Shown here piece after piece: positions 472 through 20,000 of a DNA stretch of 20,000 nucleotides. The stretch lies in the IMG/VR virus record IMGVR_UViG_3300021256_002084. One strand, 5' to 3'. The position numbers were made by a program, and so were the translations under genes. Origin of the DNA: an uncultured virus (IMG/VR IMGVR_UViG_3300021256_002084) (taxonomy: Duplodnaviria > Heunggongvirae > Uroviricota > Caudoviricetes). The notes below the pieces were generated by a model that saw only the letters and a program-made list of their open reading frames with translations, was not told where the DNA came from and did not search any database. Within the stretch, counting starts at the first letter, position 1; every line of letters begins with the position of its first letter.

Positions 472-2778
472 TCATCTACGCTTATGACTATTGTACTGAA
501 AACGCTGATCGCGGAATAACGGTTCAAAAGAAGAAACTTTAATACCGAGTTTCCACAGAACGTAACTCAATGACATCTAATCTCTGTGACTATACTTTCT
601 CAGTACTTCGGCCCACATATCCATCACTTTCCTGACTTTATCCGTATTCTTACGCACTATCACATTCGTCTCGTGTAATCCATAGTGATGCGGGAACTGT
701 TCTTGTCTGTAGAAATCAAGCTGCGGATTCAAATTATTCCAAGTATCTTTCCTGTACTTTACAATTGCTTCAGCCTCGTCGTATATACAGTCTCTCTTCG
801 GATGTTTGGTGATGACGACATCATCGTCTGCTATCTTATCGACGAACTCATCGAGATTGCATTTGATAGTCAGGTTGCCGTCGACCCAAAGACATATATC
901 ATAGTTCTCAAGGAACTCATACGGCTTGATTTTGATGATGCGCTGCTTCTTGATGATTGAGAGACTTTCGTCGTTCGCTATAGATTTCGGTAACGGACGT
1001 ATCTCCCAGACTTTTGACGTGAAATTAGTCTGATCCGTAAAGCAGACGTATCTCCATCCTGGCGTCACTACCAGAGGTTCTATCAATGCATCATATTTTC
1101 CAGTAATGCAAGTATAGCATATCTTGATTGAGGTTTCTTCTCTCCTCATAAGACGTCCTTTCTATATATTAATATCGTTTATCTTGTTTCCCGTCGTATT
1201 TACATCACACAGACGGTCGCTCTTTGCAGACTTTGTCGTATATGGTCGCATAGAACGGTAATCGGGAGTTCCGACGACACGCACATTACGCTCATTCTCT
1301 ATAATCTTGAGCAATATGTCATCTGTCGTAATGTAATCGTAGATATCTTCTTCTTTTATATCTTCAACGTGAAGTATGTTAGCGGGATAAAGTACGCCAC
1401 CGACGCCAGTAGCGAACAAATCGAAAGAAGGAACCGACTTGTCCTTAGACTGGAATATCCAATCTCCGTAGTTTTTCGGAGTTATTCCGTCTTCTTTATA
1501 AGTGATACAATGACAACGGCACGCACAGACAGTATTCGGATATTCGACGTGCGTACGATACAAATCCTCTATCATCTTAGAGTAATAGTGTTGATCATCG
1601 TCTACTGTAATGATGACAGCATCTTTGTACTTCATCATAGCCGGATAATACTTCAAGTGGGGACGATAGTTCTTTTCATATATGATTATTTCTACTTTGC
1701 CCTCACGCTGAAGTTTAAGTATAGAATCAGGAACATATTGTTTATCGTCTTTGTATATGCTCAATACGACTAATTCTGGTTTAATGGTCTGCTGTGTTAA
1801 TATCTCTCTGATGACATTCGGTGCATCATTCTTCAGTCTCTCCCCGAAAGATGTCAGAGATACGATAATGCGTTCGGTCACTTCGACTTTACGCTTCATC
1901 GATGAGAGAACGCCAGTTCGTCTCGCAGGATTGATAGGATTTCTCTGAGGAAACTTCAAATCAGTAGTTTTGTTCCAGTAATCAACAAACTCTTGCTTGC
2001 CCATATGAATTCCCCAAGGATAACGGCCCAGACGTTTATGCCACAGTTCTGGATTGTTATCAATAGCGAATTCAACCGCAGTTTTAACATCAGTATTCTC
2101 GTGTACATTATATAATATATAAGAAATATACTGATCCTCGACAGTCTTGAGACGTTCGTTGCGTTTCAACCCAGAATCGGGTTTTAATATGTCAATCATT
2201 CTCTAAACCTTTCTGAGAGACAACCCACCATTTCCGCACGCTTCTTCTGGAATTCCTATAGAAGATGCGTATTCTTTCGTCCATGGCGCACCGATGTACG
2301 TCTTGTCCATAGCAACAAAATGCTTCAAGTCGTCAGCAGTTCCGAATATGTAAGCATCGAGTTGCAAGATGAGGATATACTTCCAGGCAGTGAAATGCTT
2401 ATAGAAGTCAGCAGACAAAAGCATATCCGAATATGAGTTCTTCCCGATGAAGTTTCTTGAAGGAAGTCTGAGATACTGCAATTCGACTCCAGATGCAATG
2501 GAATTGTAAACATCAGCCCTCAGAAGTTTGGGACATACAATACAGATGTCGAAATACTTACCGAGTTTCTCAACATTGTTCTTCAGATTCATCTGCTCGA
2601 ATTCTAGAATCCTGTTAGTGTACGCAGGGATGACTATCAGACACTCTGAATTTTTCTTGGGTTTAATAATATCATTCGTCTATAGCGGAGCAACAGTTCC
2701 AGTAAAGTCGTTGTACGACTATCCTGTATTTCCAACAGACGATTTGTACACATTATAGAATTCTTGAAATGAATGCAT
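472..2778 (-). CDS. 768-aa multidomain glycosyltransferase (DUF5672-like + GT-A domain + DUF616/TOD1-MUCI70-like); 5 in-frame TAG=Gln
   Basis: Track ORFs 2203-2592, 1162-2199 and 577-1149 share one frame and each ends in TAG (2203, 1162, 577); two more TAGs at 2680 and 2719. ATG 2778, TGA 472-474. Motifs: LIVIPAY..ILQLDAYIF..YIGAPW..GNGGLSLRKV(Q)RM..EDQY; IIVSLTSF..ITVDDD..TGVGGVLYP..DDI; YTCITGKYD..WVDGN..HPKRDCIYDE..SHRD(Q)MSLSYVLW. Confidence 0.85.
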
Positions 2779-2976: not shown

Positions 2977-3870
2977 TTAAATGATTGTTCTTTCCGTTTC
3001 CCATTCAACTGCCTTGTGCCCGCCGGTCACAAGAATAGCAGCCTCATCCAAAGAGCCGACTGTCGTTCCGATTCCGACTGTATAGTTTTGTTCGTCGATG
3101 ACTACATTCGGAACTAACATATGAAGTTCGTCTATGTTCACATCATCTGCTATCTTCGTGTTTCCCAAGAACATATAACGTCCGTCGTTGAGTTTTATGC
3201 ATTCTGCGTAGAAGTCTGGACCTTTCAGCACGTGCTTCTCTATGATGCTTTCTTCTTCGTCGAAATCGTCTTGATAGTCAGAATCATTACGAACAGCGCT
3301 CAATTTATGATTACTGAGAGATATGCGTTTTGAACGGGGACGCTTGATGTTCTGCGTAAGAGCGAATCTGCGCTTCGTGTATATCCCATTGAAACCGGCA
3401 TACTCAATCATCATCATATAGTCATTGAAAACATCACGCATCAAGACTTTCTTATCGGGAGACAGATACGGTTCTTCTGGAATACTACGATTCTCCATCA
3501 GTTCAACATCACCTTGTTCAATTGCTTGAATGATAGCCAGATACTCAAGATACATAACCTCAGACTTCTCGAACTAGCCAACTGAACGTGTCAAAACACA
3601 AGCGTCTGAGAACTCACGATGTTTCTATATATGCTGCAAAATACGCTTCGACGCATCGCCAGTCTAACCGATGTATATCGAGCGTTTTTCTCCGCGAGTT
3701 TCCGGCCATATGAGCGTATATAGAGCAGCTTGCTTGATATGACTGCACTTACGTATGTAGTCTTGGTCGTATGAAATCAAGACAGTCATACACAGTTGTT
3801 TCTCCGGATAGACATACACACGAGTCTAGTCCGGACGTCCGTTAATCAAATAGCCGTCGATTTTAATCAT
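2977..3870 (-). CDS. GIY-YIG nuclease with C-terminal DUF4357 (RAMA-like) domain, 297 aa; 4 in-frame TAG=Gln
   Basis: Read-through from ATG 3870: MIKIDGYLINGRPD(Q)...AALYTLIW...SIYIG(Q)TGDASKRILQHI(Q)KH...EVMYLEYLAI...ENR; C-terminus GSLDEAAILVTGGHKAVEW. TAGs at 3826, 3664, 3625, 3574; stop TAA. Confidence 0.75.
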
Positions 3871-4354: not shown

Positions 4355-5251
4355 ATGATTGAAGAGTTCAATTCAGAAAAGAGACAACGCCAGATTGACG
4401 AATATCTAGCGGCCGATTACAAAATCGGAGATATGGTCCAGGTACGCGGAAAAGACTTGCTGTCGAACACATCTCAAGACTCAGACGCATGGAACAACTT
4501 AAATGTCGTCGGCATTCAACCGGACGGCAAACTTGAGTTGCGTCGCAGCGGCTATCGTCCCAATGATTATCACGGAGAACTGAACATCATTGACCCGAAA
4601 GAAGTCGAAGTCAGGAAAGACTGTTTCAAAATCGGAGTCAATCCATTCCCGGAAAAGGATTGGATGTCTTGCGTTCGTACGACCGGCTACGGATTCAGCC
4701 ATATCTACTTCAAAATAGGAGAAATTATCAAGAACAATAATGTCGCAAACACTATCAACGGCATTGACGTTTTTGAATATAACTTCAACCCATATGTGAT
4801 TGATAGCGACGGCAAGAAACTCTACTACCAGAGAAATTATGTCTGGACGCTAGAAGACGAGCAAGCATTTATTGAATCCATTTACAATAATCTCAGTCTC
4901 GGAACAGTCGTTTTGAGAAAACGTTCGTATAATTACGTGAAGAGCCAGGCAGAGAAAGGAAACAAAGAAGTGGGATACTTTGATGTCGTTGACGGCAAGC
5001 AGCGTCTACACACATTAAAACGCTTCTTAAACAATGAGTTTGCTGATATGCACGGAAACTACTTCGGTGATTTCTCAACATATGCTCGTCGTATGTTCTC
5101 TCAGGATCCAAACGGATTGAACGTCTTGGAGATTGAAGAAAAAGCGACAGACGAAGATGTGTTGAGAGTCTTTATGAACGTGAACTACTCAGGCAAGCCA
5201 ATGTCAAAGGAACATCTTGAATACGTGCGTTCGTTATTTAAGAAAATTTAA
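4355..5251 (+). CDS. DUF262 (GmrS-like, ParB/Srx fold) domain protein, 298 aa
   Basis: YQRNYVW..FIESI..VVDGKQRLHTL..FMNVNYSGKPMS are the three DUF262 signature motifs. Confidence 0.85.
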   Translation: MIEEFNSEKRQRQIDEYLAADYKIGDMVQVRGKDLLSNTSQDSDAWNNLNVVGIQPDGKLELRRSGYRPNDYHGELNIIDPKEVEVRKDCFKIGVNPFPEKDWMSCVRTTGYGFSHIYFKIGEIIKNNNVANTINGIDVFEYNFNPYVIDSDGKKLYYQRNYVWTLEDEQAFIESIYNNLSLGTVVLRKRSYNYVKSQAEKGNKEVGYFDVVDGKQRLHTLKRFLNNEFADMHGNYFGDFSTYARRMFSQDPNGLNVLEIEEKATDEDVLRVFMNVNYSGKPMSKEHLEYVRSLFKKI

Positions 5252-5272
5252 CAACATTAACAATAAGCAGAT

Positions 5273-6016
5273 ATGAAGATTAAAGAGATTTACGAAAACA
5301 TCATTGCTTTTCTGATTGAGAACTTTACAGCAATATGTGAGAAGTTCGAGAAAGCATCAAAGATGACTGAAGAAGTCAAGCGAATTTCTGAGAACATAAA
5401 GAAAGACATTGATACTCTCTGGAAGTCAATGCAGCAACATCGTCAGCATGAGGGCACACGATATGTCTTAGTCAATCCGGATGGGGAACTTGACGGTTAT
5501 TTCTTCAACGACCAGGACTACGACTCAAAGTTGCGTGAGTTCTATACTACAGCAGACATCAAAGCCGGAGAACGTCTCTATATGGTCAACAACTACTATG
5601 AAGAAAAGACGTTCATCGTTTGCTATCGCATCTATAGTCCTTCAAAGAACACGATGTTCCTCGAAGTAAAGGAATATAATAAAGACAAGAGTTATGCGGA
5701 TCCAGACTGGTGCTACACTGAAGAATTCGACAAGTGCGTTCGTAAGATGGCTGCTGACGAAGCCTATACAGAACGTGCAAAAAGAGACTTCAAGAAGTAT
5801 CATAACTGCGACGAAGAGAACGAAGACGAAATAGAGAAAGAGTTTGAAGAGCGCAAACTTGACTTAGTCGCCTGGCAGATTGCTGATCAGATTGATAAAG
5901 AGCATCGCACATATCTTCAGTTCGATTGTATCAAATATCGTGTACAAGCGATTCTTTATAAAGATGCCGGAAAAGAATGGCATAAACCTCATCGTTGGGA
6001 GTACTCCGAATTCTAA
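5273..6016 (+). CDS. Hypothetical protein, 247 aa
   Basis: Long ORF 21 bp after the DUF262 gene, followed by a terminator; no motif recognised. Confidence 0.8.
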   Translation: MKIKEIYENIIAFLIENFTAICEKFEKASKMTEEVKRISENIKKDIDTLWKSMQQHRQHEGTRYVLVNPDGELDGYFFNDQDYDSKLREFYTTADIKAGERLYMVNNYYEEKTFIVCYRIYSPSKNTMFLEVKEYNKDKSYADPDWCYTEEFDKCVRKMAADEAYTERAKRDFKKYHNCDEENEDEIEKEFEERKLDLVAWQIADQIDKEHRTYLQFDCIKYRVQAILYKDAGKEWHKPHRWEYSEF

Positions 6017-6034
6017 ACTTCTTCCATATTAAGC

Positions 6035-6080
6035 AAAGACGCCAGGAATCACGAAAATGATTTCAGCGTCTTTTTCTTTT
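6035..6080 (+). terminator. Intrinsic terminator
   Basis: AAAGACGC..GAATCA-CGAAAA-TGATTT..GCGTCTTT followed by a T-tract. Confidence 0.7.
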
Positions 6081-6089
6081 GTCCGCATA

Positions 6090-6117
6090 AACTATTCTAG
6101 TTTTCTTGAGTACAATA
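6090..6117 (+). promoter_or_regulatory. Putative phage 'middle' promoter variant AACTATT-N14-TACAATA
   Basis: Same spacing as copies at 14147, 14239, 17530, 18010. Confidence 0.45.
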
Positions 6118-6120
6118 AGT

Positions 6121-7377
6121 ATGATAAGCAGAAATAATACAAATACACAGGATACGAACAAGATTAAAGTATTTACGGCATTCTCAGGATATGACTCCCA
6201 GTGTCTCGCACTAAAGAGACTCAAGGACGAACATCCAGATTTCGACTACGAACTGGTCGGATGGTCAGAAATCGAGCCGAATGCTATCAAGGCACATAAC
6301 ATACTTTTCCCAGAAGCAGCAGACAAAAATCTCGGAGACATTGCTAAAATCGACTGGACGCAAGTTCCCGATTTCGATCTCTTCACTTATAGTAGTCCAT
6401 GCACCGACTTCAGTTTAGCCGGTTCTTTAAGCGGAGGCGAAGAAGGTAGCGGAACACGAAGCAGTCTTCTTTGGGAGTGTCGCAGATGCATTGAAGCCAA
6501 ACGACCCAAGTACTTATTGCTTGAGAACGTACAGAACCTCGTCAGCAAGCGATTCTTCGACTTGTTTTGTAAGTGGATAGACACAGTCAACGCTTTCGGG
6601 TATGAATCGTTCTGGACGACACTCAATGCCAAAGATTTCGGAGTTCCTCAAAACCGCGAAAGAGTGTTCTTAGTCTCAATACGCAAAGACTCTGAAGAAG
6701 AGAAAATCTCATTCAACTTCCCGAAACCTCTCAAGGTGAAGCCCGATGTCAAAGACATCTACGAAAAGCAAGTCTCCTCAGAATATGACATCGACTACAA
6801 GAAGATGATAGCGTGGGTCGCTAACAACCAGCAGAAAATCTTGGAGTATATATCAGAACGAAACAATATGGATATTTCCGAGATAGAAATAACAAATCCG
6901 GAAAACATCAGTATAATCTATAAAAGCAATACACAAGAAAGCGATATGCAGAAGAAAAAGAACAACCTCACTGAAGAAGAGCAGCAGTTGCTGGAAGAAC
7001 AGGAAGCAGAGCGTGAACTGGAAAGCGCAGAACTCTCTGACTTCGACGATTCATTCAAGCCTACAGTTCTCAGTGAGGAAGAGAAAAGACGTCCAGTTAA
7101 ACCGGTCATCGAATATCTGACTGAGGAAGACAAGAAGATACGTGGAAATGACAAATGCATCAAGATTATCCCTACGCCGACTCGAAGCGACGGATCTGCG
7201 CCCACACTGATGGCTACGGGTTATCAGTCAGCAGACTATAAGAACTTCTATTCAGTGGGACACTTCCCGAAACTTGGCGTCTTCGAAGTATGGCATCATA
7301 ATCCGAAGAAACTTCGCAAGAAAGCAAATAAGACAGAAACATCAGAAGAAATATCTAACACAAACACACTTATATAA
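6121..7377 (+). CDS. DNA (cytosine-5)-methyltransferase, motifs I-VIII plus variable region; motifs IX-X apparently missing
   Basis: FSGYDSQ (motif I variant), GDI, SSPCTDFS, ENV, QNRERVF; no RxLTxRE or GN(S/A) motif before TAA. ATG 6121 preferred over TTG 6106. Confidence 0.85.
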   Translation: MISRNNTNTQDTNKIKVFTAFSGYDSQCLALKRLKDEHPDFDYELVGWSEIEPNAIKAHNILFPEAADKNLGDIAKIDWTQVPDFDLFTYSSPCTDFSLAGSLSGGEEGSGTRSSLLWECRRCIEAKRPKYLLLENVQNLVSKRFFDLFCKWIDTVNAFGYESFWTTLNAKDFGVPQNRERVFLVSIRKDSEEEKISFNFPKPLKVKPDVKDIYEKQVSSEYDIDYKKMIAWVANNQQKILEYISERNNMDISEIEITNPENISIIYKSNTQESDMQKKKNNLTEEEQQLLEEQEAERELESAELSDFDDSFKPTVLSEEEKRRPVKPVIEYLTEEDKKIRGNDKCIKIIPTPTRSDGSAPTLMATGYQSADYKNFYSVGHFPKLGVFEVWHHNPKKLRKKANKTETSEEISNTNTLI

Positions 7378-11576: not shown

Positions 11577-12830
11577 ATGTAGAACTAGAAAAAGAGAGTG
11601 CTGTCGCTCTTCTCCGGTGCCGGAGGTATGGACATTGGATTTGAAGGGAACTTTATAGCACCGAGAAAATCAATAGTCCCGCTATCACTCATCGCCGCTG
11701 AATAGTCATCATTAGAAACTCAGTACACATTCGTCGAACCGACATCATTCCAGACAGTCTTTGCTAATGACATCAATCCGTCAGCAAAAGCAGCGTGGTG
11801 CCGCTATTTCAAAAAGAACTACGGCTACCAACAAGACACATATCATCTCGAATCAGTCGTCGACCTAGTCAAAAGACACTAGTCCGGAGAATCGGTCTTT
11901 CCGTCAGACATAGACGTTGTAACCGGAGGATTTCCATGTCAGGACTTCAGCACAGCGGGCAAGCGACTTGGCTTCAACTCTAACAAGAACGATTAGGGAA
12001 CACTCAGAGAAAGCGTCTCTGAAGAATCAAGAGGGAAACTCTATTACTGGATGAAACAAATCATCGACATCGTCCAGCCGAAAGTCTTCGTAGCAGAGAA
12101 TGTCAAAGGACTCTTGTCAATGGACGATGCGGCAGACATCATAAGAAGAGACTTCAGCGAGTCCGGTTACATCGTCTTGAAACCGAGACTGCTCAAAGCT
12201 TGGGAGTACGGAGTTCCAGAATCAAGAGAGCGAGTCATATTCATAGGACTGCGCCAAGATTCGTTACGAAACCAAACGCTGAGAGCAATCACAGACCAAA
12301 ATGAACTCATAAAGACAATAGAAAAGAAGTTCAACCCTTATCCACGTCCCACACACGGACAAGGACATCTCTCGCCCATAGTCTGCTGTCGTGACGTTCT
12401 CTCCCATCTTCTAGAACCAGATGACGCTGCTCTCGACGACCTCTCTCACAAGACCTATTCAAAAGCAAAGTATCTCGGAAAAGGAAAATAGGGACAGACA
12501 GAAATCAAATGGGACGGGCTCGCACCAACAATACGCTCAGAACATCACGGCAATATAGAATATCGTCGCTTGAGCGCAGAGCACGGAGGACTGATGAGTG
12601 ATGAACTCGCTGCCGGTCTCCAGGAACGCAGACTCACACCACGTGAATGTGCATTAATCTAGACATTTCCTCCCGATTATGAATTCGTCTTCAATAATGA
12701 ACAGGCTAAAGAAAAAGTCTCACGAAGCGATGCTTACAAACTCATAGGAAACGCTGTTCCTCCTGTCCTCGCATACAAGATTGCAAGACGTCTTGAAGAA
12801 GTCTGGGACGATTTGTTCCTTGATAAATAA
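11577..12830 (+). CDS. DNA (cytosine-5)-methyltransferase, M.BepI-like (probably CGCG), 417 aa; 7 in-frame TAG=Gln
   Basis: M(Q)N(Q)[48 protein letters not shown](Q)[29 protein letters not shown](Q)TFPPDY..IGNAVPP. TAGs at 11580, 11586, 11703, 11880, 11994, 12489, 12660. Specificity inferred from remembered similarity to M.BepI. Confidence 0.9.
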
Positions 12831-14125
12831 TGTATATGAGACGCACATTCGATTTCAGCACTATAGAAAATCAGTTAACTGGAGAAGCAATCAACGAAGA
12901 TTTCTTCGACGACTTCAGTAATAGCATTATCAATAAGGACAACTCAAGACGAGTCGTCGACGATAATGCTGCTATCGTCTATTCGCAGAGGATGATATTG
13001 ACACTGATGCTTCATCACTCATCATCGTGCAGACACAGTATCGAAGAATTCGTCGAAAGAATAGACACTATCGTCAATAACTGCCGTGCGATTGAGAGCG
13101 CGTCGATAATCAAACTCAGACTTCAGAATCAAAAAGACAAGAATGACGAACGTCCTGAGTTTGAATACGGAGATTTCCCGAAAGAAAAAGACTATCTTTA
13201 TAAATATGCTTCACGAGGCAGTGAACTCAACAGCATATATCCGTTTATCTGCGTCTTCTTCATTATCTCATACGAACCGGTTGATAAAATTGACTATCGC
13301 TCTTTCGTAAAGCATTGGGAAAAGATGATGGACACCTTGGGTAACAAACTCCCGATATGTACGGCTCCTGAAGTCGGGCAGACAAGCGGAGATTCTGTCT
13401 TCTTGATGTTGGTAAGTGAAGATACGAATAAGCACTTAGACGCTCATCTTTCTGCTTTCGGAACTACAAAGCCGTCCGACTATGCGGATGCTTATAAACT
13501 GTTGTATGATGACGATAGTGTAGTGAGCGAAGAAAACGTAGCACTGGAAACATACAAGGCAAAGTTTAACGTAAGAAACTTCGTCAGCAAGATAAAGAAT
13601 CACATCGCTATGGATCCGACCAGCCCGATGGACGTCACATACAAGACATCATCGTGGATTGCAGAGAATACACTGCTGGTGAAACTTAATGTAGAGCCAC
13701 TGAAGTTCGACGTCATTGATGTGAAATTCTTGTATACGATTCTACGCAACTATTTCTTCAATTTGATTCCAGATATTCTGAGAAAGAACTGTGCGATTGG
13801 AGTCGCAGTGACTTCAGAAGCCGGCTGGTACGGGGAGAACAACAAGTCTGCTGAGTTCGGACGACCCCCAGGCCCGATAACTGCGTCAACCGGAACGCAG
13901 ATTTCGAACGTCGCACGTCCGGAAAACGTTCCGTTGTACAATAACGGAAAAGAATACAAGACCAATCGCTTTGTAGAAATCGAGTATCAGAAGAACAATG
14001 CTCGCTGTTATGTGCTTATTCCAAGTAAGAACGGATACTTGGTAAAGAACTGGGAAAATTTGTCTCTCAAGTATCCAGACCTTATGAAAGACGCTTAGCC
14101 TTTCCTGGAAATAAGATTGGATTGA
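12830..14125 (+). CDS. Hypothetical protein, about 431 aa, possibly virion-internal; 1 in-frame TAG
   Basis: Track ORF ends at TAG 14096; read-through adds QPFLEIRLD to TGA 14123-14125. GATAAATA at 12822-12829 upstream (true start may be ATG 12836); N-terminal INE-DFFDD resembles an (I/L)-x-E prohead protease site. Confidence 0.75.
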
Positions 14126-14146
14126 AAATTATTCGTCCAAACTCTA

Positions 14147-14174
14147 AACTAAATCATAACTTCGATATATAATA
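14147..14174 (+). promoter_or_regulatory. Putative phage 'middle' promoter AACTAAA-N14-TATAATA, copy 1 upstream of suppressor tRNA
   Basis: Exact motif and spacing repeated at 14239 and 17530. Confidence 0.65.
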
Positions 14175-14238
14175 ATATAGAGAGAAGAAAGAAACTCATC
14201 AATACTAATTTGGTGAATAATTTCTTCTCCGAATAGAG

Positions 14239-14266
14239 AACTAAATTCGAAAACGAGAATATAATA
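14239..14266 (+). promoter_or_regulatory. Putative phage 'middle' promoter AACTAAA-N14-TATAATA, copy 2 upstream of suppressor tRNA
   Basis: Exact motif and spacing. Confidence 0.65.
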
Positions 14267-14351
14267 ATTAGAAGAGAAAGTAAAGTTAAAATAAAAACAA
14301 GCGAGCCTAAAGTAAAATTTTAACGAAAGTTCGTAACTGATTGAAAATCAG

Positions 14352-14424
14352 TGGGATGTAGTGTAAGTGGTAAACACGGGATTCTCTAAAAGTCCAGTTC
14401 TGAGCCCGAACCTCAGCGTCCCGA
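14352..14424 (+). tRNA. Amber suppressor tRNA, anticodon CUA (tRNA-Gln-like), no encoded CCA
   Basis: Acceptor TGGGATG/CGTCCCG, D stem GTGT/ACAC, anticodon stem GGATT/AGTCC with loop CT-CTA-AA (14386-14388), T stem CTGAG/CTCAG with loop CCCGAAC. Confidence 0.9.
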
Positions 14425-14431
14425 CAAAGAA

Positions 14432-14463
14432 GAAGCGAGAGATAAAATCAAATCTCTCGCTTC
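14432..14463. terminator. Perfect 12-bp hairpin after the suppressor tRNA (terminator or processing stem)
   Basis: GAAGCGAGAGAT-AAAATCAA-ATCTCTCGCTTC. Confidence 0.65.
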
Positions 14464-14495
14464 AATTATTTATAATTCTTATATGTGTTATTTCT

Positions 14496-14603
14496 TTACT
14501 AACTCAGAAAGACTGCTTGCTTGTGGTTATAAAAAGTATCTTTAGTCAAATTGTATTTCTTAGCATAGTCTTTCGCAGAAATTCTGTTCTTAACGAAACC
14601 AGA
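14496..14603 (-). pseudogene. Start-less helix-turn-helix-like gene remnant
   Basis: SGFVKNRISAKDYAKKYNLTKDTFYNHKQAVFLS(Q)*; preceded by in-frame TAA, no start codon. Confidence 0.3.
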
Positions 14604-14612
14604 TTATCTGTT

Positions 14613-14647
14613 AAAAAAGAAACTCTCCGAATTATCGAAGAGTTTCT
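14613..14647 (-). terminator. Intrinsic terminator of the 673-aa gene
   Basis: Minus strand AGAAACTCTTCGA-TAAT-TCGGAGAGTTTCT-TTTTT. Confidence 0.75.
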
Positions 14648-14670
14648 AATTATTGTTTGATAAAGAGTTA

Positions 14671-16692
14671 TCAGTTCAGTACTTGCCAAGTCAAAGCTGC
14701 TGTAATCTGCTCTTCTACGAATACAGAAGTATCGGCAGTCTTTGCAATACCGTTTGCATGAGTGCTGTAGTCACCATAAGTAACTGTAACACTTTCGTTC
14801 TTAACAATACCATTAGTTTCGCTGATAACAGTCTTAACGAATCCAGCGCCATCAGAAGCGCTTGCGTCTGCCACATCATTAGCCAAATCGAGTGCCTGAA
14901 TTTCTGAGTCAATATAACTCTTTGTAGCACCAGTTGTTGCGAGACCATCAGTCTGAGAAGTGGAATCATAATCACCGAATACGGCTGTCAGAGAACAAGA
15001 AGAGTCAAGCAACTTACCATCAACGATACCAACCTTGTAGCCGATGAAGTTAGAAGAGTCTTTCTTCTCAACTTCTGAGTCGAGACCATTGAATCCTTGT
15101 TCAGCGATTGTATCGATATAGTTTTTAATCGGAGCAATTGCATCTCCTACGAGCAGACCTGATGTTGATGTCAATGAAGGCTCGTCGCCAGTATTATCGA
15201 ATGTGACAGTTGCTTTAGTAGCAGTAACGCCAATAGCAGTTACTTTACCGTCTGTTTCAGAAAGTGTGATGCCAATAGAACCATCGAGTGTATTGACAGA
15301 GAGTTCTGCATCCATACCAGCGATAGCAGTCTCAATAGCACTTACAGAAGTATCAAGACGATCAATAGAAGAATCAATCTCAACGTCCTTAGCCTTCAGA
15401 GCAGCGATAGAAGAGTCAATCTCAACGTCCTTAGCCTTCAGAGCAGCGATAGAAGCATCGATCTCAGTGTCTTTAGCTTTCAGAGCAGTGATAGAAGCAT
15501 CCTGCTCTTCATCTTTAGCCTGGAGATTATCGATAGAAGCATCGACATCAACGAACTTCTGAACAAGAGCAGTTTCAACGATTTCCAGAGATTGAGTAGA
15601 ACCATCAACAGTCTTTGCGCCAACAGTCAGATCCACATAGGTCTTTTCGGTCGAAGTCTTATTGATGCCCTGAAGAGCAGTCTCTGCGAGAGCAACAGCA
15701 GCCTTAGTCTTGTCAGTAGCAGCAACATTGATATGCTTCTTATCAGTATCGTCAACAGAAGCGTCAACATAGTTGTCACCAGAAGCGCTTACAGCCAAAT
15801 CCGTAGTCTTTGAATCAACATATTGCTTAACCTTCAAAGCATCTGCTAAACCAGTATGAGTAGCATCAGCAGTAGAAGGATCCTGCATCTTAGTGTCAAG
15901 AGTAACAGTAGATGCATCGAGAGTGGCATTCAAGTAAATTTTAGAATCATTGCCGATGAAAACATCGTTAATGTCAATCAACTTCTGCAAGTTGACTTCT
16001 ACTTTGGTGTAAGTTGTAGGATCATTAGGATTATAAACCTTACCATTACCGAAGCGGAGCTCGAGGATGTTAGTATCCTGATGATAAATAGAATCCTTCA
16101 AAACACCGTCACCAACAATATCAGAAACGTTAATCGAACTCAGAACAGTATTGCTGTTGTCACGAAGAGCAATAGTAGCACCAGTTGTACCTTCTTCTGC
16201 AATGTAAGCAATGTTCAGACCAGTCTTCAGATACTTGTTAACAGAATCAATGAGGATTGTCTGACCGTCAACTTTCACATCAGCAGTTCCGTTAGTGATA
16301 GCAATGGTATTAGAATTAGTGAAGTAATCCTCAAAATAAGCCTTTGCAGCAGCAGCGTTAACTACATCGAAAGTAATAGTATCAGTAGCCTTGGTTGAAT
16401 CGTTGAAGAAAGTAACTGTGATAGTATTCTCGCCAGTTTTGCCGTTATTTACAGCAGCATACGTAACGTCAAGAATCTTTGAAGAAACAATTGAGTTACC
16501 AACAGCGATGATACCAGTGCCTGCGTTAGCACCAGTACCAGCCCAGAAAGTAATAGTACCTTCGTCAGCAGTACCGACCTTAGCAACATTTTCTGTGTAT
16601 GCGAACTTTACTGTCTGAGCGCCAGTAGCTGCGCCGAACAAACCTGCACCGTTTACATAATTCAGAAGTGTTTTCTTAGAAAATTTTTCCAT
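14671..16692 (-). CDS. Putative virion fibre/structural protein, 673 aa, with central coiled coil
   Basis: T/S/D/A/G/V-rich beta segments plus DASIAALKAKDxEI repeats; TATAAATA at 16726-16733 upstream; TGA-TAA stop. Confidence 0.75.
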   Translation of the reverse strand: MEKFSKKTLLNYVNGAGLFGAATGAQTVKFAYTENVAKVGTADEGTITFWAGTGANAGTGIIAVGNSIVSSKILDVTYAAVNNGKTGENTITVTFFNDSTKATDTITFDVVNAAAAKAYFEDYFTNSNTIAITNGTADVKVDGQTILIDSVNKYLKTGLNIAYIAEEGTTGATIALRDNSNTVLSSINVSDIVGDGVLKDSIYHQDTNILELRFGNGKVYNPNDPTTYTKVEVNLQKLIDINDVFIGNDSKIYLNATLDASTVTLDTKMQDPSTADATHTGLADALKVKQYVDSKTTDLAVSASGDNYVDASVDDTDKKHINVAATDKTKAAVALAETALQGINKTSTEKTYVDLTVGAKTVDGSTQSLEIVETALVQKFVDVDASIDNLQAKDEEQDASITALKAKDTEIDASIAALKAKDVEIDSSIAALKAKDVEIDSSIDRLDTSVSAIETAIAGMDAELSVNTLDGSIGITLSETDGKVTAIGVTATKATVTFDNTGDEPSLTSTSGLLVGDAIAPIKNYIDTIAEQGFNGLDSEVEKKDSSNFIGYKVGIVDGKLLDSSCSLTAVFGDYDSTSQTDGLATTGATKSYIDSEIQALDLANDVADASASDGAGFVKTVISETNGIVKNESVTVTYGDYSTHANGIAKTADTSVFVEEQITAALTWQVLN
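15365..15546. repeat. 42-bp coding tandem repeat, about 4.3 units
   Basis: Units begin ATAGAAG at 15365, 15407, 15449, 15491, 15533; 14 aa = two heptads. Confidence 0.9.
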
Positions 16693-18116: not shown

Positions 18117-19379
18117 ATGGCTAAGAAAACCGTAAAGAAAGAGGGCGCCCTGCCCGATCCTATGAAAATGATGTAGAAAATCGATAAAGACGTTGAAGTC
18201 ATCGAAGATTCTGCATATTCTAATATTGAGGACTGGATTTCATCCGGTAACTATATTCTCGATGCTTGTGTATCTGGAAGTTGCTTTAAGGGTATTGCGC
18301 CAGCTGGTCGTGTGACTACACTCACTGGAGACCCAGGAACCGGTAAGTCTTATCTGGCTTGTTCGTTTGCTCGTGAAGCACAGAAGAAAAACTACACTGT
18401 ACTTTATCTTGATAGTGAAGGTGCTATAGACAAGGCTTTCGTATCAAGACTCGGTGTAGACACATCAAAGTTATTAATCAGACAAGTAAGCACTGTTCTT
18501 GAAGTTTCTCAGATTATTTTGAATCTGTGCCGGGAACTCGAAGCACAGGAAGAAGAGTACGGAGAGCACAATAAATTCGCTATCGTGCTTGACTCGCTCG
18601 GAAACTTGTCAACACAGTCAGAAGTAGAGAATACTGCTGCCGGTGAGAACAAACGAGACTTGAAGCGTGCGCAAGACGTCAAGCAGTTGTTCAGAACTTG
18701 TACGACGCCTATCGCAAGAATGAAGATTCCTTTCGTAGTGATTACTCACCAATATGCATCTATCGGTAGTTATGTGCCTACCAACATTGCTTCTGGTGGT
18801 TCCGGATTGGGTTATAACTCTAGTGTAACACTCGAACTTAGTGTCTCTAAACTTGCTGATAAAGCAAACGACGCTGCTGCTGCAAAAGCCGCAAATGCTG
18901 AAGACGTTGTAAAGACTGGCGTAACTGTGACAGCAAAACCGAAGAAGAGCAGATTCACCATTCCTCGTAAAGTACGTTTCCAGATTCCATATTATAAGAA
19001 GCCAAACCCATATGTCGGTCTTGACGGATTTGTGGGAGATTTCGAAAAGAGCGGAATATGTCGTGGCGTATTGCTGAGCGAAAAAGAGTATAGCAAACTG
19101 TCTGACGCTGATAAAGCAAAAGTATACGTTTTCGAAAAAGACGGTCAGACGCTGTACTGTCAGCAGAAAGATACTGCTCGTTCAATTGTCGTAAAACACT
19201 TGGGTGAAGCAATTCCTATTCCTGACTTGTTCACTGATAAAGTATTCACAGAAGAATATCTGCACTGGCTGGACGATAACGTCATAAGACCGGCATTTGA
19301 ACTTCCCGACCAGAACGCTTTCGATGATGTCAAAGAAATCGAAGACTTAATCGAGGTCTCGTCTGAGGAAAATGAGTAA
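18117..19379 (+). CDS. uvsX: UvsX/RecA-like recombinase, 420 aa; 1 in-frame TAG at codon 20
   Basis: ATG 18117, TAG 18174; WISSGNYILDACVSG..Walker A GDPGTGKS, YLDSEGA, Walker B IVLDSLGNL, SGGSGLGYNSS, KSRF. Confidence 0.9.
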
Positions 19380-19783: not shown

Positions 19784-19855
19784 GGCCCGTTCGTCTATCG
19801 GTTAGGACGTGAGATTTTCATTCTCAAAAGAGCAGTTCGATTCTGCTACGGGCTA
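19784..19855 (+). tRNA. trnE: tRNA-Glu (TTC)
   Basis: GGCCCGT/ACGGGCT acceptor, TGAGA-TT-TTC-AT-TCTCA anticodon arm, TTCGATT T-loop. Confidence 0.95.
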
Positions 19856-19865
19856 CGAACTTAAT

Positions 19866-19939
19866 GGTGTGTTAGTTCAGTTGGTTAGAATGCCTGCCTG
19901 TCACGCAGGAGGTCACGGGTTCGAGTCCCGTACACACCG
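19866..19939 (+). tRNA. trnD: tRNA-Asp (GTC)
   Basis: GGTGTGT/ACACACC acceptor, CCTGC-CT-GTC-AC-GCAGG anticodon arm, TTCGAGT T-loop. Confidence 0.95.
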
Positions 19940-19947
19940 CTGTTAAT

Positions 19948-20000
19948 GCTTGCGTAGCTCAGTTGGTTAGAGCACCTGACTGTTAATCAGGGGGTCGTTG
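19948..20000 (+). tRNA. trnN: tRNA-Asn (GTT), truncated by window end
   Basis: GCTC/GAGC D stem, CCTGA-CT-GTT-AA-TCAGG anticodon arm. Confidence 0.9.

Follow-up and report, generated by a model that had tools for sequence, protein, structure and literature searches.

Can a tRNA that has lost U54 and U55 from its T-loop still decode a reassigned stop codon for a phage? The question is raised by a gene for a tRNA with a CUA anticodon, tRNA(CUA), at 14352..14424 (+ strand) of a 20,000-nucleotide stretch of DNA from an uncultured virus (IMG/VR record IMGVR_UViG_3300021256_002084), the whole of which is called the window here. The T-loop of this tRNA (14405..14411, + strand) reads CCCGAAC, with C54 and C55 in place of U54 and U55. 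These uridines are described as universally conserved and structurally central (PMC7912444), their roles being the U54-A58 pair and the G18-U55 contact (PMC7912444).

The tRNA(CUA) gene and its glutamine-like body

The gene, 73 nt to A73, is recognized by ARAGORN, Rfam and a family alignment as a tRNA, predicted to be a Gln-type amber suppressor. ARAGORN calls it at 14352-14425 with anticodon CTA, its "Pyl" label being due solely to the anticodon. The acceptor stem TGGGATG/CGTCCCG contains U1.G72, G2-C71 and G3-C70 and is followed by the discriminator A73; the D arm is GTGT-AAGTGGTAA-ACAC, with G18 G19 present; the T stem is CTGAG/CTCAG, the variable loop has 4 nt and no CCA is encoded. The anticodon (14386..14388, + strand) lies in the 7-nt loop CTCTAAA, with U33 and a purine, A37. 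All 21 stem pairs are standard pairs, and C56, G57, A58, G53-C61, U8, A14 and G18 G19 are canonical. The cloverleaf, the CUA anticodon and the U1.G72, G2-C71 and G3-C70 pairs reported in the preliminary description are therefore confirmed by the sequence, by ARAGORN and by Rfam. The T-loop given there, CCCGAAC, is also real; it had been described as T-Psi-C replaced by CCC, and the replacement concerns U54 and U55, C56 itself being normal. The T-Psi-C motif (U54, U55) is absent, as C54/C55 in the window and the related metagenome locus L025 and as C54/U55 in locus L029 (T-loop CTCGAAC) and in X2, an independent DNA run. The gene is still classed as a tRNA, every other test of sequence and structure having been passed.

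In a search confined to the 301 nt of 14250-14550, tRNA(CUA) scores 42.4 bits against RF00005 (E 5.8e-8, model positions 1-71; gathering score 29), compared with 54.8 and 72.4 bits for the neighbouring tRNAs. Two Rfam scans of the whole window, one at the gathering threshold and one at an E-value threshold, both omit it, probably because the speed filters depend on conserved T-loop sequence. The family cloverleaf, drawn from 15 sequences (tRNA(CUA) and 14 phage CUA or Gln tRNAs), has 99% of its cells paired and compensatory changes at 16 of its 21 pairs, a level reached by none of 500 shuffles. A custom covariance model of 15 related tRNAs, applied to the 20 kb with filters off, returned beyond the known cluster just two low-scoring matches (12.4 and 11.3 bits); neither this model nor ARAGORN finds a second CUA tRNA within the window. 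Minimum free energy folding was dropped as a discriminator of alleles: it gives a non-cloverleaf for the C55 allele (-19.5 kcal/mol, z -0.96) and a cloverleaf-like fold for the U55 allele (-18.6 kcal/mol), and the canonical tRNA of locus L006 is given a non-cloverleaf as well.

In the 15-sequence alignment tRNA(CUA) groups with phage CUA tRNAs and with tRNA-Gln(UUG/CUG). It shares with the phage tRNA-Gln U1, G2-C71, A73, a D arm of GTGTAA/GTATAA and a variable loop of 4 nt, in line with the earlier impression of a Gln-like molecule, and its acceptor stem opens with the same six bases, TGGGAT, as that of Lak tRNA-Gln(CUG). What sets the lineage apart from the other aligned sequences is C54 and an additional G in the D-loop. 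G3-C70 and G10 are present. The rule for E. coli GlnRS is G73 and U1-A72, from which tRNA(CUA) departs (A73, U1.G72). On these sequence features tRNA(CUA) is probably of Gln type, and its body, with a predicted Gln identity, makes it the natural candidate for reading TAG.

TAG as a sense codon and the affiliation of the phage

Does the phage use TAG as glutamine? The window holds 19 in-frame TAG in six of its 18 ORFs, and with TAG taken as sense, TAA closes 14 and TGA three of the 17 complete ORFs; TAG is therefore a sense codon. Reading through it fuses fragments into ORFs of 768, 297 and 417 aa, namely a glycosyltransferase-like ORF (DUF5672 and TOD1/MUCI70; five in-frame TAG; 472..2778, - strand), a 297-aa ORF (four; 2977..3870, - strand) and a C5 DNA methylase (seven; 11577..12830, + strand). 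The methylase matches PF00145 in full (2-323 of 324) solely under TAG readthrough. Aligned with its best 120 database homologues (57-65% identity, several of them named Prevotella or Prevotellaceae), it has TAG at two positions, aa 305 and aa 362, that are Q in 120 of 120 homologues each. At aa 102 the homologues have Q in 46 and N in 47 of 120, and the TAG at aa 2, 4, 43 and 140 fall in variable columns that are mostly N, K, E and M, respectively. The two Gln-invariant positions support the reading of TAG as Gln, and on this alignment TAG is taken to mean Gln in this phage; the single TAG of the UvsX gene, at a variable position, carries no information on its meaning.

The codon for the invariant Gln 362 (12660..12662, + strand) is CAG in L025, L029 and X2, and the TAG of the window strain, a carrier of C55, looks like a recent CAG-to-TAG change. 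It is an indirect sign that this strain continues to decode UAG as Gln. The argument is silent on which tRNA does the decoding, and it could be weaker if the methylase is dispensable. Within the same 9 kb as this TAG-rich methylase lie a TAG-free C5 DNA methylase (4355-7377) and a protein (4355-5251) whose N-terminal domain is GmrSD.

The preliminary description had assigned the code switch to tRNA(CUA). With TAG read as Gln, and as the only CUA tRNA in the 20 kb and one of probable Gln type, it is the natural candidate for this role.

The phage was placed near the Lak megaphages by its UvsX/RecA-like recombinase (18117..19379, + strand, one in-frame TAG). The protein is 54-55% identical to those of Lak-A1, Lak-A2 and Lak-C1 (genomes of ~540 kb), with 54.7% identity over 98% of the query in tblastn for Lak-A1 and Lak-A2, and 56-61% identical to those of three IMG/VR contigs (53-135 kb, CheckV 10-24% complete). 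These identities indicate that the window comes from a distant Lak-like megaphage; its G+C content is ~40%. Prevotella-type hosts form part of the best explanation given below and would, with it, be probable. A blastn search of phage records with 13000-16000 gave no match to a close relative. IMG/VR searches with two neighbouring proteins found no relatives, and exact tRNA patterns retrieved there either nothing, a chance match in a coding region (L001) or the already known tRNA of G001. The lineage-specific pattern occurs in none of 185,579 species genomes.

Lak phages read TAG as Gln, as the window phage does, and encode 24-56 tRNAs per genome (PMC8346664); a TAG-suppressor tRNA, in one or two copies, is present in 38 of 51 Lak genomes (PMC8346664). 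The suppressors of Lak-A1 (MK250016.1) and Lak-B2 (MK250021.1), which use code 15, resemble tRNA(CUA) in a probable Gln type with U1, G2 and A73, in the 4-nt variable loop, in the lack of an encoded CCA and in standing apart from the main tRNA clusters. They differ in the T-loop, TTCGAGT, and in U1-A72, whereas the window lineage has C54 with C55 or U55, U1.G72 and an extra D-loop G. An ochre-reading UUA tRNA with a canonical T-loop was also seen in Lak-A1 (L038:105-177 (-)) and Lak-B2 (L046:128-200 (+)); such a tRNA is encoded by all Lak genomes (PMC8346664).

Suppressor tRNAs of code 15 phages are well known (10.1101/2021.08.26.457843; PMC8346664; PMC9523058). For recoded gut phages the proposal is that a phage-encoded suppressor changes the code of some of the genes (10.1101/2021.08.26.457843), with which the TAG in six of 18 ORFs of the window can be compared. 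The same source suggests that non-canonical suppressors may escape detection, and tRNA(CUA) is a mild case of such a hard-to-detect suppressor, missed by whole-window Rfam and found by ARAGORN.

Genomic surroundings and variation among strains

The gene stands 5.36 kb upstream of a cluster of canonical tRNAs (19784..20000, + strand), which bears out the isolation of about 5.4 kb noted earlier. The cluster comprises tRNA-Glu(UUC) (19784-19856) and tRNA-Asp(GUC) (19866-19940), both called by ARAGORN, and a third tRNA (tentatively Asn, 19948-20000) detected by Rfam and cut by the window end; all have TTCGA T-loops, and ARAGORN counts three tRNA genes in the window in total. A hairpin with a 12-bp stem lies 8 nt past tRNA(CUA) (14432..14463) and is terminator-like on both strands. 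Among three strains its stems vary at 0 of 24 sites and its loop at 6 of 7, the pattern that a selected terminator structure would show.

Upstream, a block at 14250..14291 (+ strand) has no differences in the window, L025 and L029 and is a possible promoter; X2 departs from it at 14254, 14287 and 14290. Exact ATATAATAAT motifs occur near the gene at 14259, inside this block, and at 14167. The motif is enriched across the window (15 matches, 2.7 expected) and was rejected as a clear promoter, some copies overlapping start codons. Sigma-70-like matches in 14000-14800 number 4, against 2.4 +/- 1.5 in shuffles, and are not above chance. Of the promoters and 3' hairpin that the gene had been said to own, the hairpin therefore stands, and the promoter matches are at chance level.

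Straight after the hairpin, L025 (31-1488 (+)) and L029 (2077-3926 (-)) carry an insert that is absent from the window, where the junction would fall near 14588-14600. It is ~2 kb long in L029, in which both ends are visible. Its product is a GIY-YIG homing-endonuclease-like protein, 479-485 aa long and 86% identical between the two loci; the L029 insert additionally encodes an HU-like protein of 128 aa. Further downstream, a 673-aa ORF (14671-16692 (-)) is free of TAG and has no Pfam or PHROG match. Contigs from two RNA runs of different studies (X3, X7) cover 14686-16500 of it, both starting at 14686, beyond the tRNA, and running to the end of the stretch compared (16500); total-RNA contigs rarely hold tRNAs, so this coverage is uninformative on expression of tRNA(CUA). 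The ORF also contains an internal repeat around 15320-15550, marked by a depth spike and double placement.

A pattern scan of metagenome contigs with positions 54-56 left free yielded 22 loci. Four strains were compared closely, namely the window together with X1, L025, L029 and X2, the wider comparisons being with contigs selected by pattern. The Logan contig of X1, a possible source of the window, equals it over 12500-15403 with no differences. With 96.2% identity to the window across 2548 bases, L025 has an identical 74-base gene with CCC, whereas L029, 94.8% identical over 2053 bases, differs in the tRNA solely by CTCGAAC. The 722-base contig of X2 shows 13 differences from the window, 11 of them in 13921-14351 and one in the tRNA (14406 C>T). 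C54 is thus present in four of four strains, and position 55 (14406..14406, + strand), the sole variable site of the gene, is a strain polymorphism, with C in L025 and in the window and X1 and with T in the other two, L029 and X2. In more distant members of the family positions 54 and 55 are both U, which makes C54, followed by C55, the derived states. X2 shares flank states with L025 at 14292, 14293, 14305 and 14318, yet has U55 as in L029. The allele at 55 is out of step with the flank markers, which requires recombination or repeated change; gene conversion around the GIY-YIG element could be the source of the mosaic distribution.

Is the gene maintained? In the three-strain alignment (substitution columns) 1 of 73 sites varies in the tRNA, compared with 15 of 224 in the upstream spacer and 29 of 162 in the downstream spacer, or 44 of 386 in both non-coding flanks; the tRNA is lower at a one-sided Fisher p of 0.003. 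Between the two C55 carriers by themselves (window, L025) the figures are 0 of 73 and 14 of 389 (p 0.087), which is suggestive only. On this low variability relative to the flanks, the gene is probably maintained by selection.

The same data bear on a rather unlikely alternative, that tRNA(CUA) is a weak or decaying spare copy, drifting while decoding is left to a canonical CUA tRNA in another part of a genome of ~500 kb. Sequence is known for the 20-kb window only; two CUA tRNAs occur in four of the 22 metagenome loci (L015, L016, L019, L024), and Lak genomes have one or two suppressor copies (PMC8346664). The changes themselves affect two of the most conserved tRNA positions, and the Rfam score lies below those of both neighbours. 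However, neutral-like substitution and broken stems, the marks of a pseudogene, were not what was found: flank divergence among the four strains is 4-15% and the tRNA has no further substitution, its 21 stem pairs and the other tertiary positions have all been kept, and the terminator stem is conserved. The decaying copy suggested in the preliminary description is accordingly disfavoured by the count of 1 in 73 variable sites.

The T-loop variants and their meaning

How unusual is the T-loop? The tally covers 103 distinct tRNA sequences (among the 125 called in loci L001-L031 and the window) and 61 ARAGORN calls in regions fetched from Lak-A1 and Lak-B2, and TTC starts the T-loop in 150 of the 164. 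In the window and loci there are 96 TTC, three ATC and one each of TCC, TGC, CCC and CTC; the 30 calls from Lak-A1 have 27 TTC, two TTT and one ATC, and the 31 from Lak-B2 have 27 TTC, three TTT and one TCC. The preliminary description had proposed comparing the T-loops of CUA tRNAs in particular: 17 of the 20 distinct ones in the window and loci have TTC, the others being one TGC, one CCC and one CTC, and the Lak suppressors have TTCGAGT. C54 appears in two of the 164, both from the window lineage, and C54 together with C55 is found nowhere else in the tally.

C55 by itself does recur. The tRNA-Gln(UUG) of Lak-B2 (L043:3706-3777, MK250021.1) has the T-loop TCCGAAT, with 100% identity over the surrounding 171 nt among nine records, Lak-B1 to B9; its Lak-A1 counterpart has TTCGAGT. 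Alleles of a megaphage tRNA-Val(UAC) differ only by U55C, with TCCGAGC in L010 (6219-6294 (-)) and L017 (7500-7575 (-)) and TTCGAGC in L013 (5624-5699 (+)). The C55 tRNAs retain G18. Deviations from the T-loop consensus are uncommon yet recurrent in megaphage tRNAs, and these sequences suggest that U55C seems to be tolerated in them. The Lak-B tRNA-Gln(UUG) and the tRNA-Val have C55 only, whereas the tRNA(CUA) of the window has C54 and C55. Eukaryotic initiator tRNA, in which A54 pairs with A58, is also off the U54 consensus (PMC7912444). A full-text literature search found no paper describing T-loop variants of phage suppressor or megaphage tRNAs, and the part of a review on tuning tRNAs that was available is silent on positions 54 and 55 (PMC11231383).

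Several other unusual tRNAs were seen in the same set. Five Lak tRNAs (Arg-CCU, Arg-UCU, Lys-CUU; L035, L042, L043, L048) have TTT T-loops, with U56, and all five have GA, not GG, in the D-loop, consistent with A19-U56 replacing G19-C56. A CUA tRNA of L023 (9985-10057 (-)) has the T-loop TGCAAGT, with G55, and the D-loop AATAGTTA, with A at the expected G18, which may be an 18-55 covariation. CUA tRNAs of 90-91 nt, in which a Gln-like D arm is combined with a long variable arm and an encoded CCA, occur at L010:9968-10057 (-), L012:384-474 (-), L013:1647-1736 (+) and L017:9942-10031 (-) and in L018, L021 and L030, on contigs dense in tRNA genes (as many as 27 within 20 kb). A further tRNA called by ARAGORN, at L017:3202-3275 (-), has 8 nt in its anticodon loop and the four-base anticodon tttt, and it resembles a frameshift suppressor.

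The most probable explanation of the locus, favoured with fair confidence, is that tRNA(CUA) is a functional, selectively maintained Gln-type amber suppressor of a Lak-like megaphage in which the changes at the elbow are tolerated. From the gene, its conservation, the distribution of its alleles and the use of TAG as Gln, we infer its expression, processing, charging and decoding, and the tolerance of its elbow, as follows. It would be transcribed as a short unit ending at the hairpin 8 nt downstream and matured by host RNase P and the host CCA-adding enzyme, the latter being invoked because no CCA is encoded. The host Gln-charging system would load it with Gln, and the charged tRNA would read UAG in the recoded phage genes.

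Loss of U54 means that no m5U54 can form, and loss of U55, in the C55 allele, that no pseudouridine 55 can. [quoted passage not shown] Given the central structural place of U54 and U55 (PMC7912444), some loss of function is expected. The elbow changes may then be near-neutral or mildly deleterious in a tRNA needed for one infection cycle only, and would be neither a designed feature nor decay; by analogy with C55 in the Lak-B tRNA-Gln(UUG) and the megaphage tRNA-Val, tolerance is the most likely account of them.

A quite doubtful alternative, which takes up the nuclease evasion raised in the preliminary description, is that the T-loop changes protect tRNA(CUA) from host nucleases that cut T-loops, the U55 and C55 alleles recording an arms race. 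CbCash, a CRISPR-associated Schlafen nuclease, cleaves tRNAs mainly at the T-loop UUC, 5' of U55 (PMC13462974), and its cleavage is abolished by single mutations of U54 or U55 (PMC13462974), the very nucleotides changed here; the sole variable site of the gene is thus a nuclease-critical position. Whether phage tRNAs are targeted is left by its authors as an open question (PMC13462974). Precedent comes from phage tRNAs that evade anticodon nucleases through loop mutations (PMC10264068), although those cases concern the anticodon loop, whereas tRNA(CUA) is changed at T-loop positions needed by CbCash (PMC13462974). T-loop evasion by a phage tRNA was not reported in the literature searched.

The allele at 55 does not track the flanks, X2 combining four flank states of L025 with the T55 of L029, a point in favour of this alternative; recombination beside the homing-endonuclease insertion could explain the incongruence equally well. 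Against protection, the tRNA-Glu, the tRNA-Asp and the partial third tRNA of the window keep TTC, as do 150 of the 164 tallied tRNAs, and guarding one tRNA would be no escape from a general T-loop nuclease. In a narrower and slightly less probable form, C54, with C55 in some strains, would be a counter-defence: loss of the UUC required by Schlafen-type T-loop nucleases would guard the single tRNA which the host, able to provide all the others, cannot supply and on which translation of the TAG-containing genes would depend, with position 55 still toggling.

To our knowledge, C-to-U editing of bacterial or phage tRNA T-loops has not been described. That CCC is a sequencing or assembly error, or that C54 and C55 are edited back to U in the RNA, is highly improbable: nothing speaks for error, and editing, which had been put forward and finds no support, is conceivable in principle only, while CCC occurs in the window, in the X1 Logan contig and in L025, and C54 in all four strains. 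L025 is independent and 3.8% diverged, which excludes the assembly error that had been named as a refutation of the original observation.

If tRNA(CUA) is the functional suppressor favoured here, the locus offers a concrete reason why suppressors appear to be "missing" in recoded phages: covariance searches accelerated by filters twice dropped a gene that the full model scores well above threshold. As the predicted decoder, it would be needed by the phage for 19 codons in the window alone. If instead the changes serve in counter-defence, T-loop-based evasion of a nuclease would here be met in nature for the first time, and bacterial translation would be able to use an elongator tRNA without m5U54 and pseudouridine 55.

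Few bases in biology are as conserved as U54 and U55, which bear the two most widespread tRNA modifications; one or both of them are gone from tRNA(CUA), an elongator-type tRNA that is naturally maintained. The series of alleles formed by C54/C55, C54/U55 and the ancestral-type U54/U55 gives a direct handle on how these positions contribute to folding, to processing by RNase P and the CCA-adding enzyme, and to charging, and likewise to the efficiency of suppression and to resistance against the newly described T-loop nucleases.
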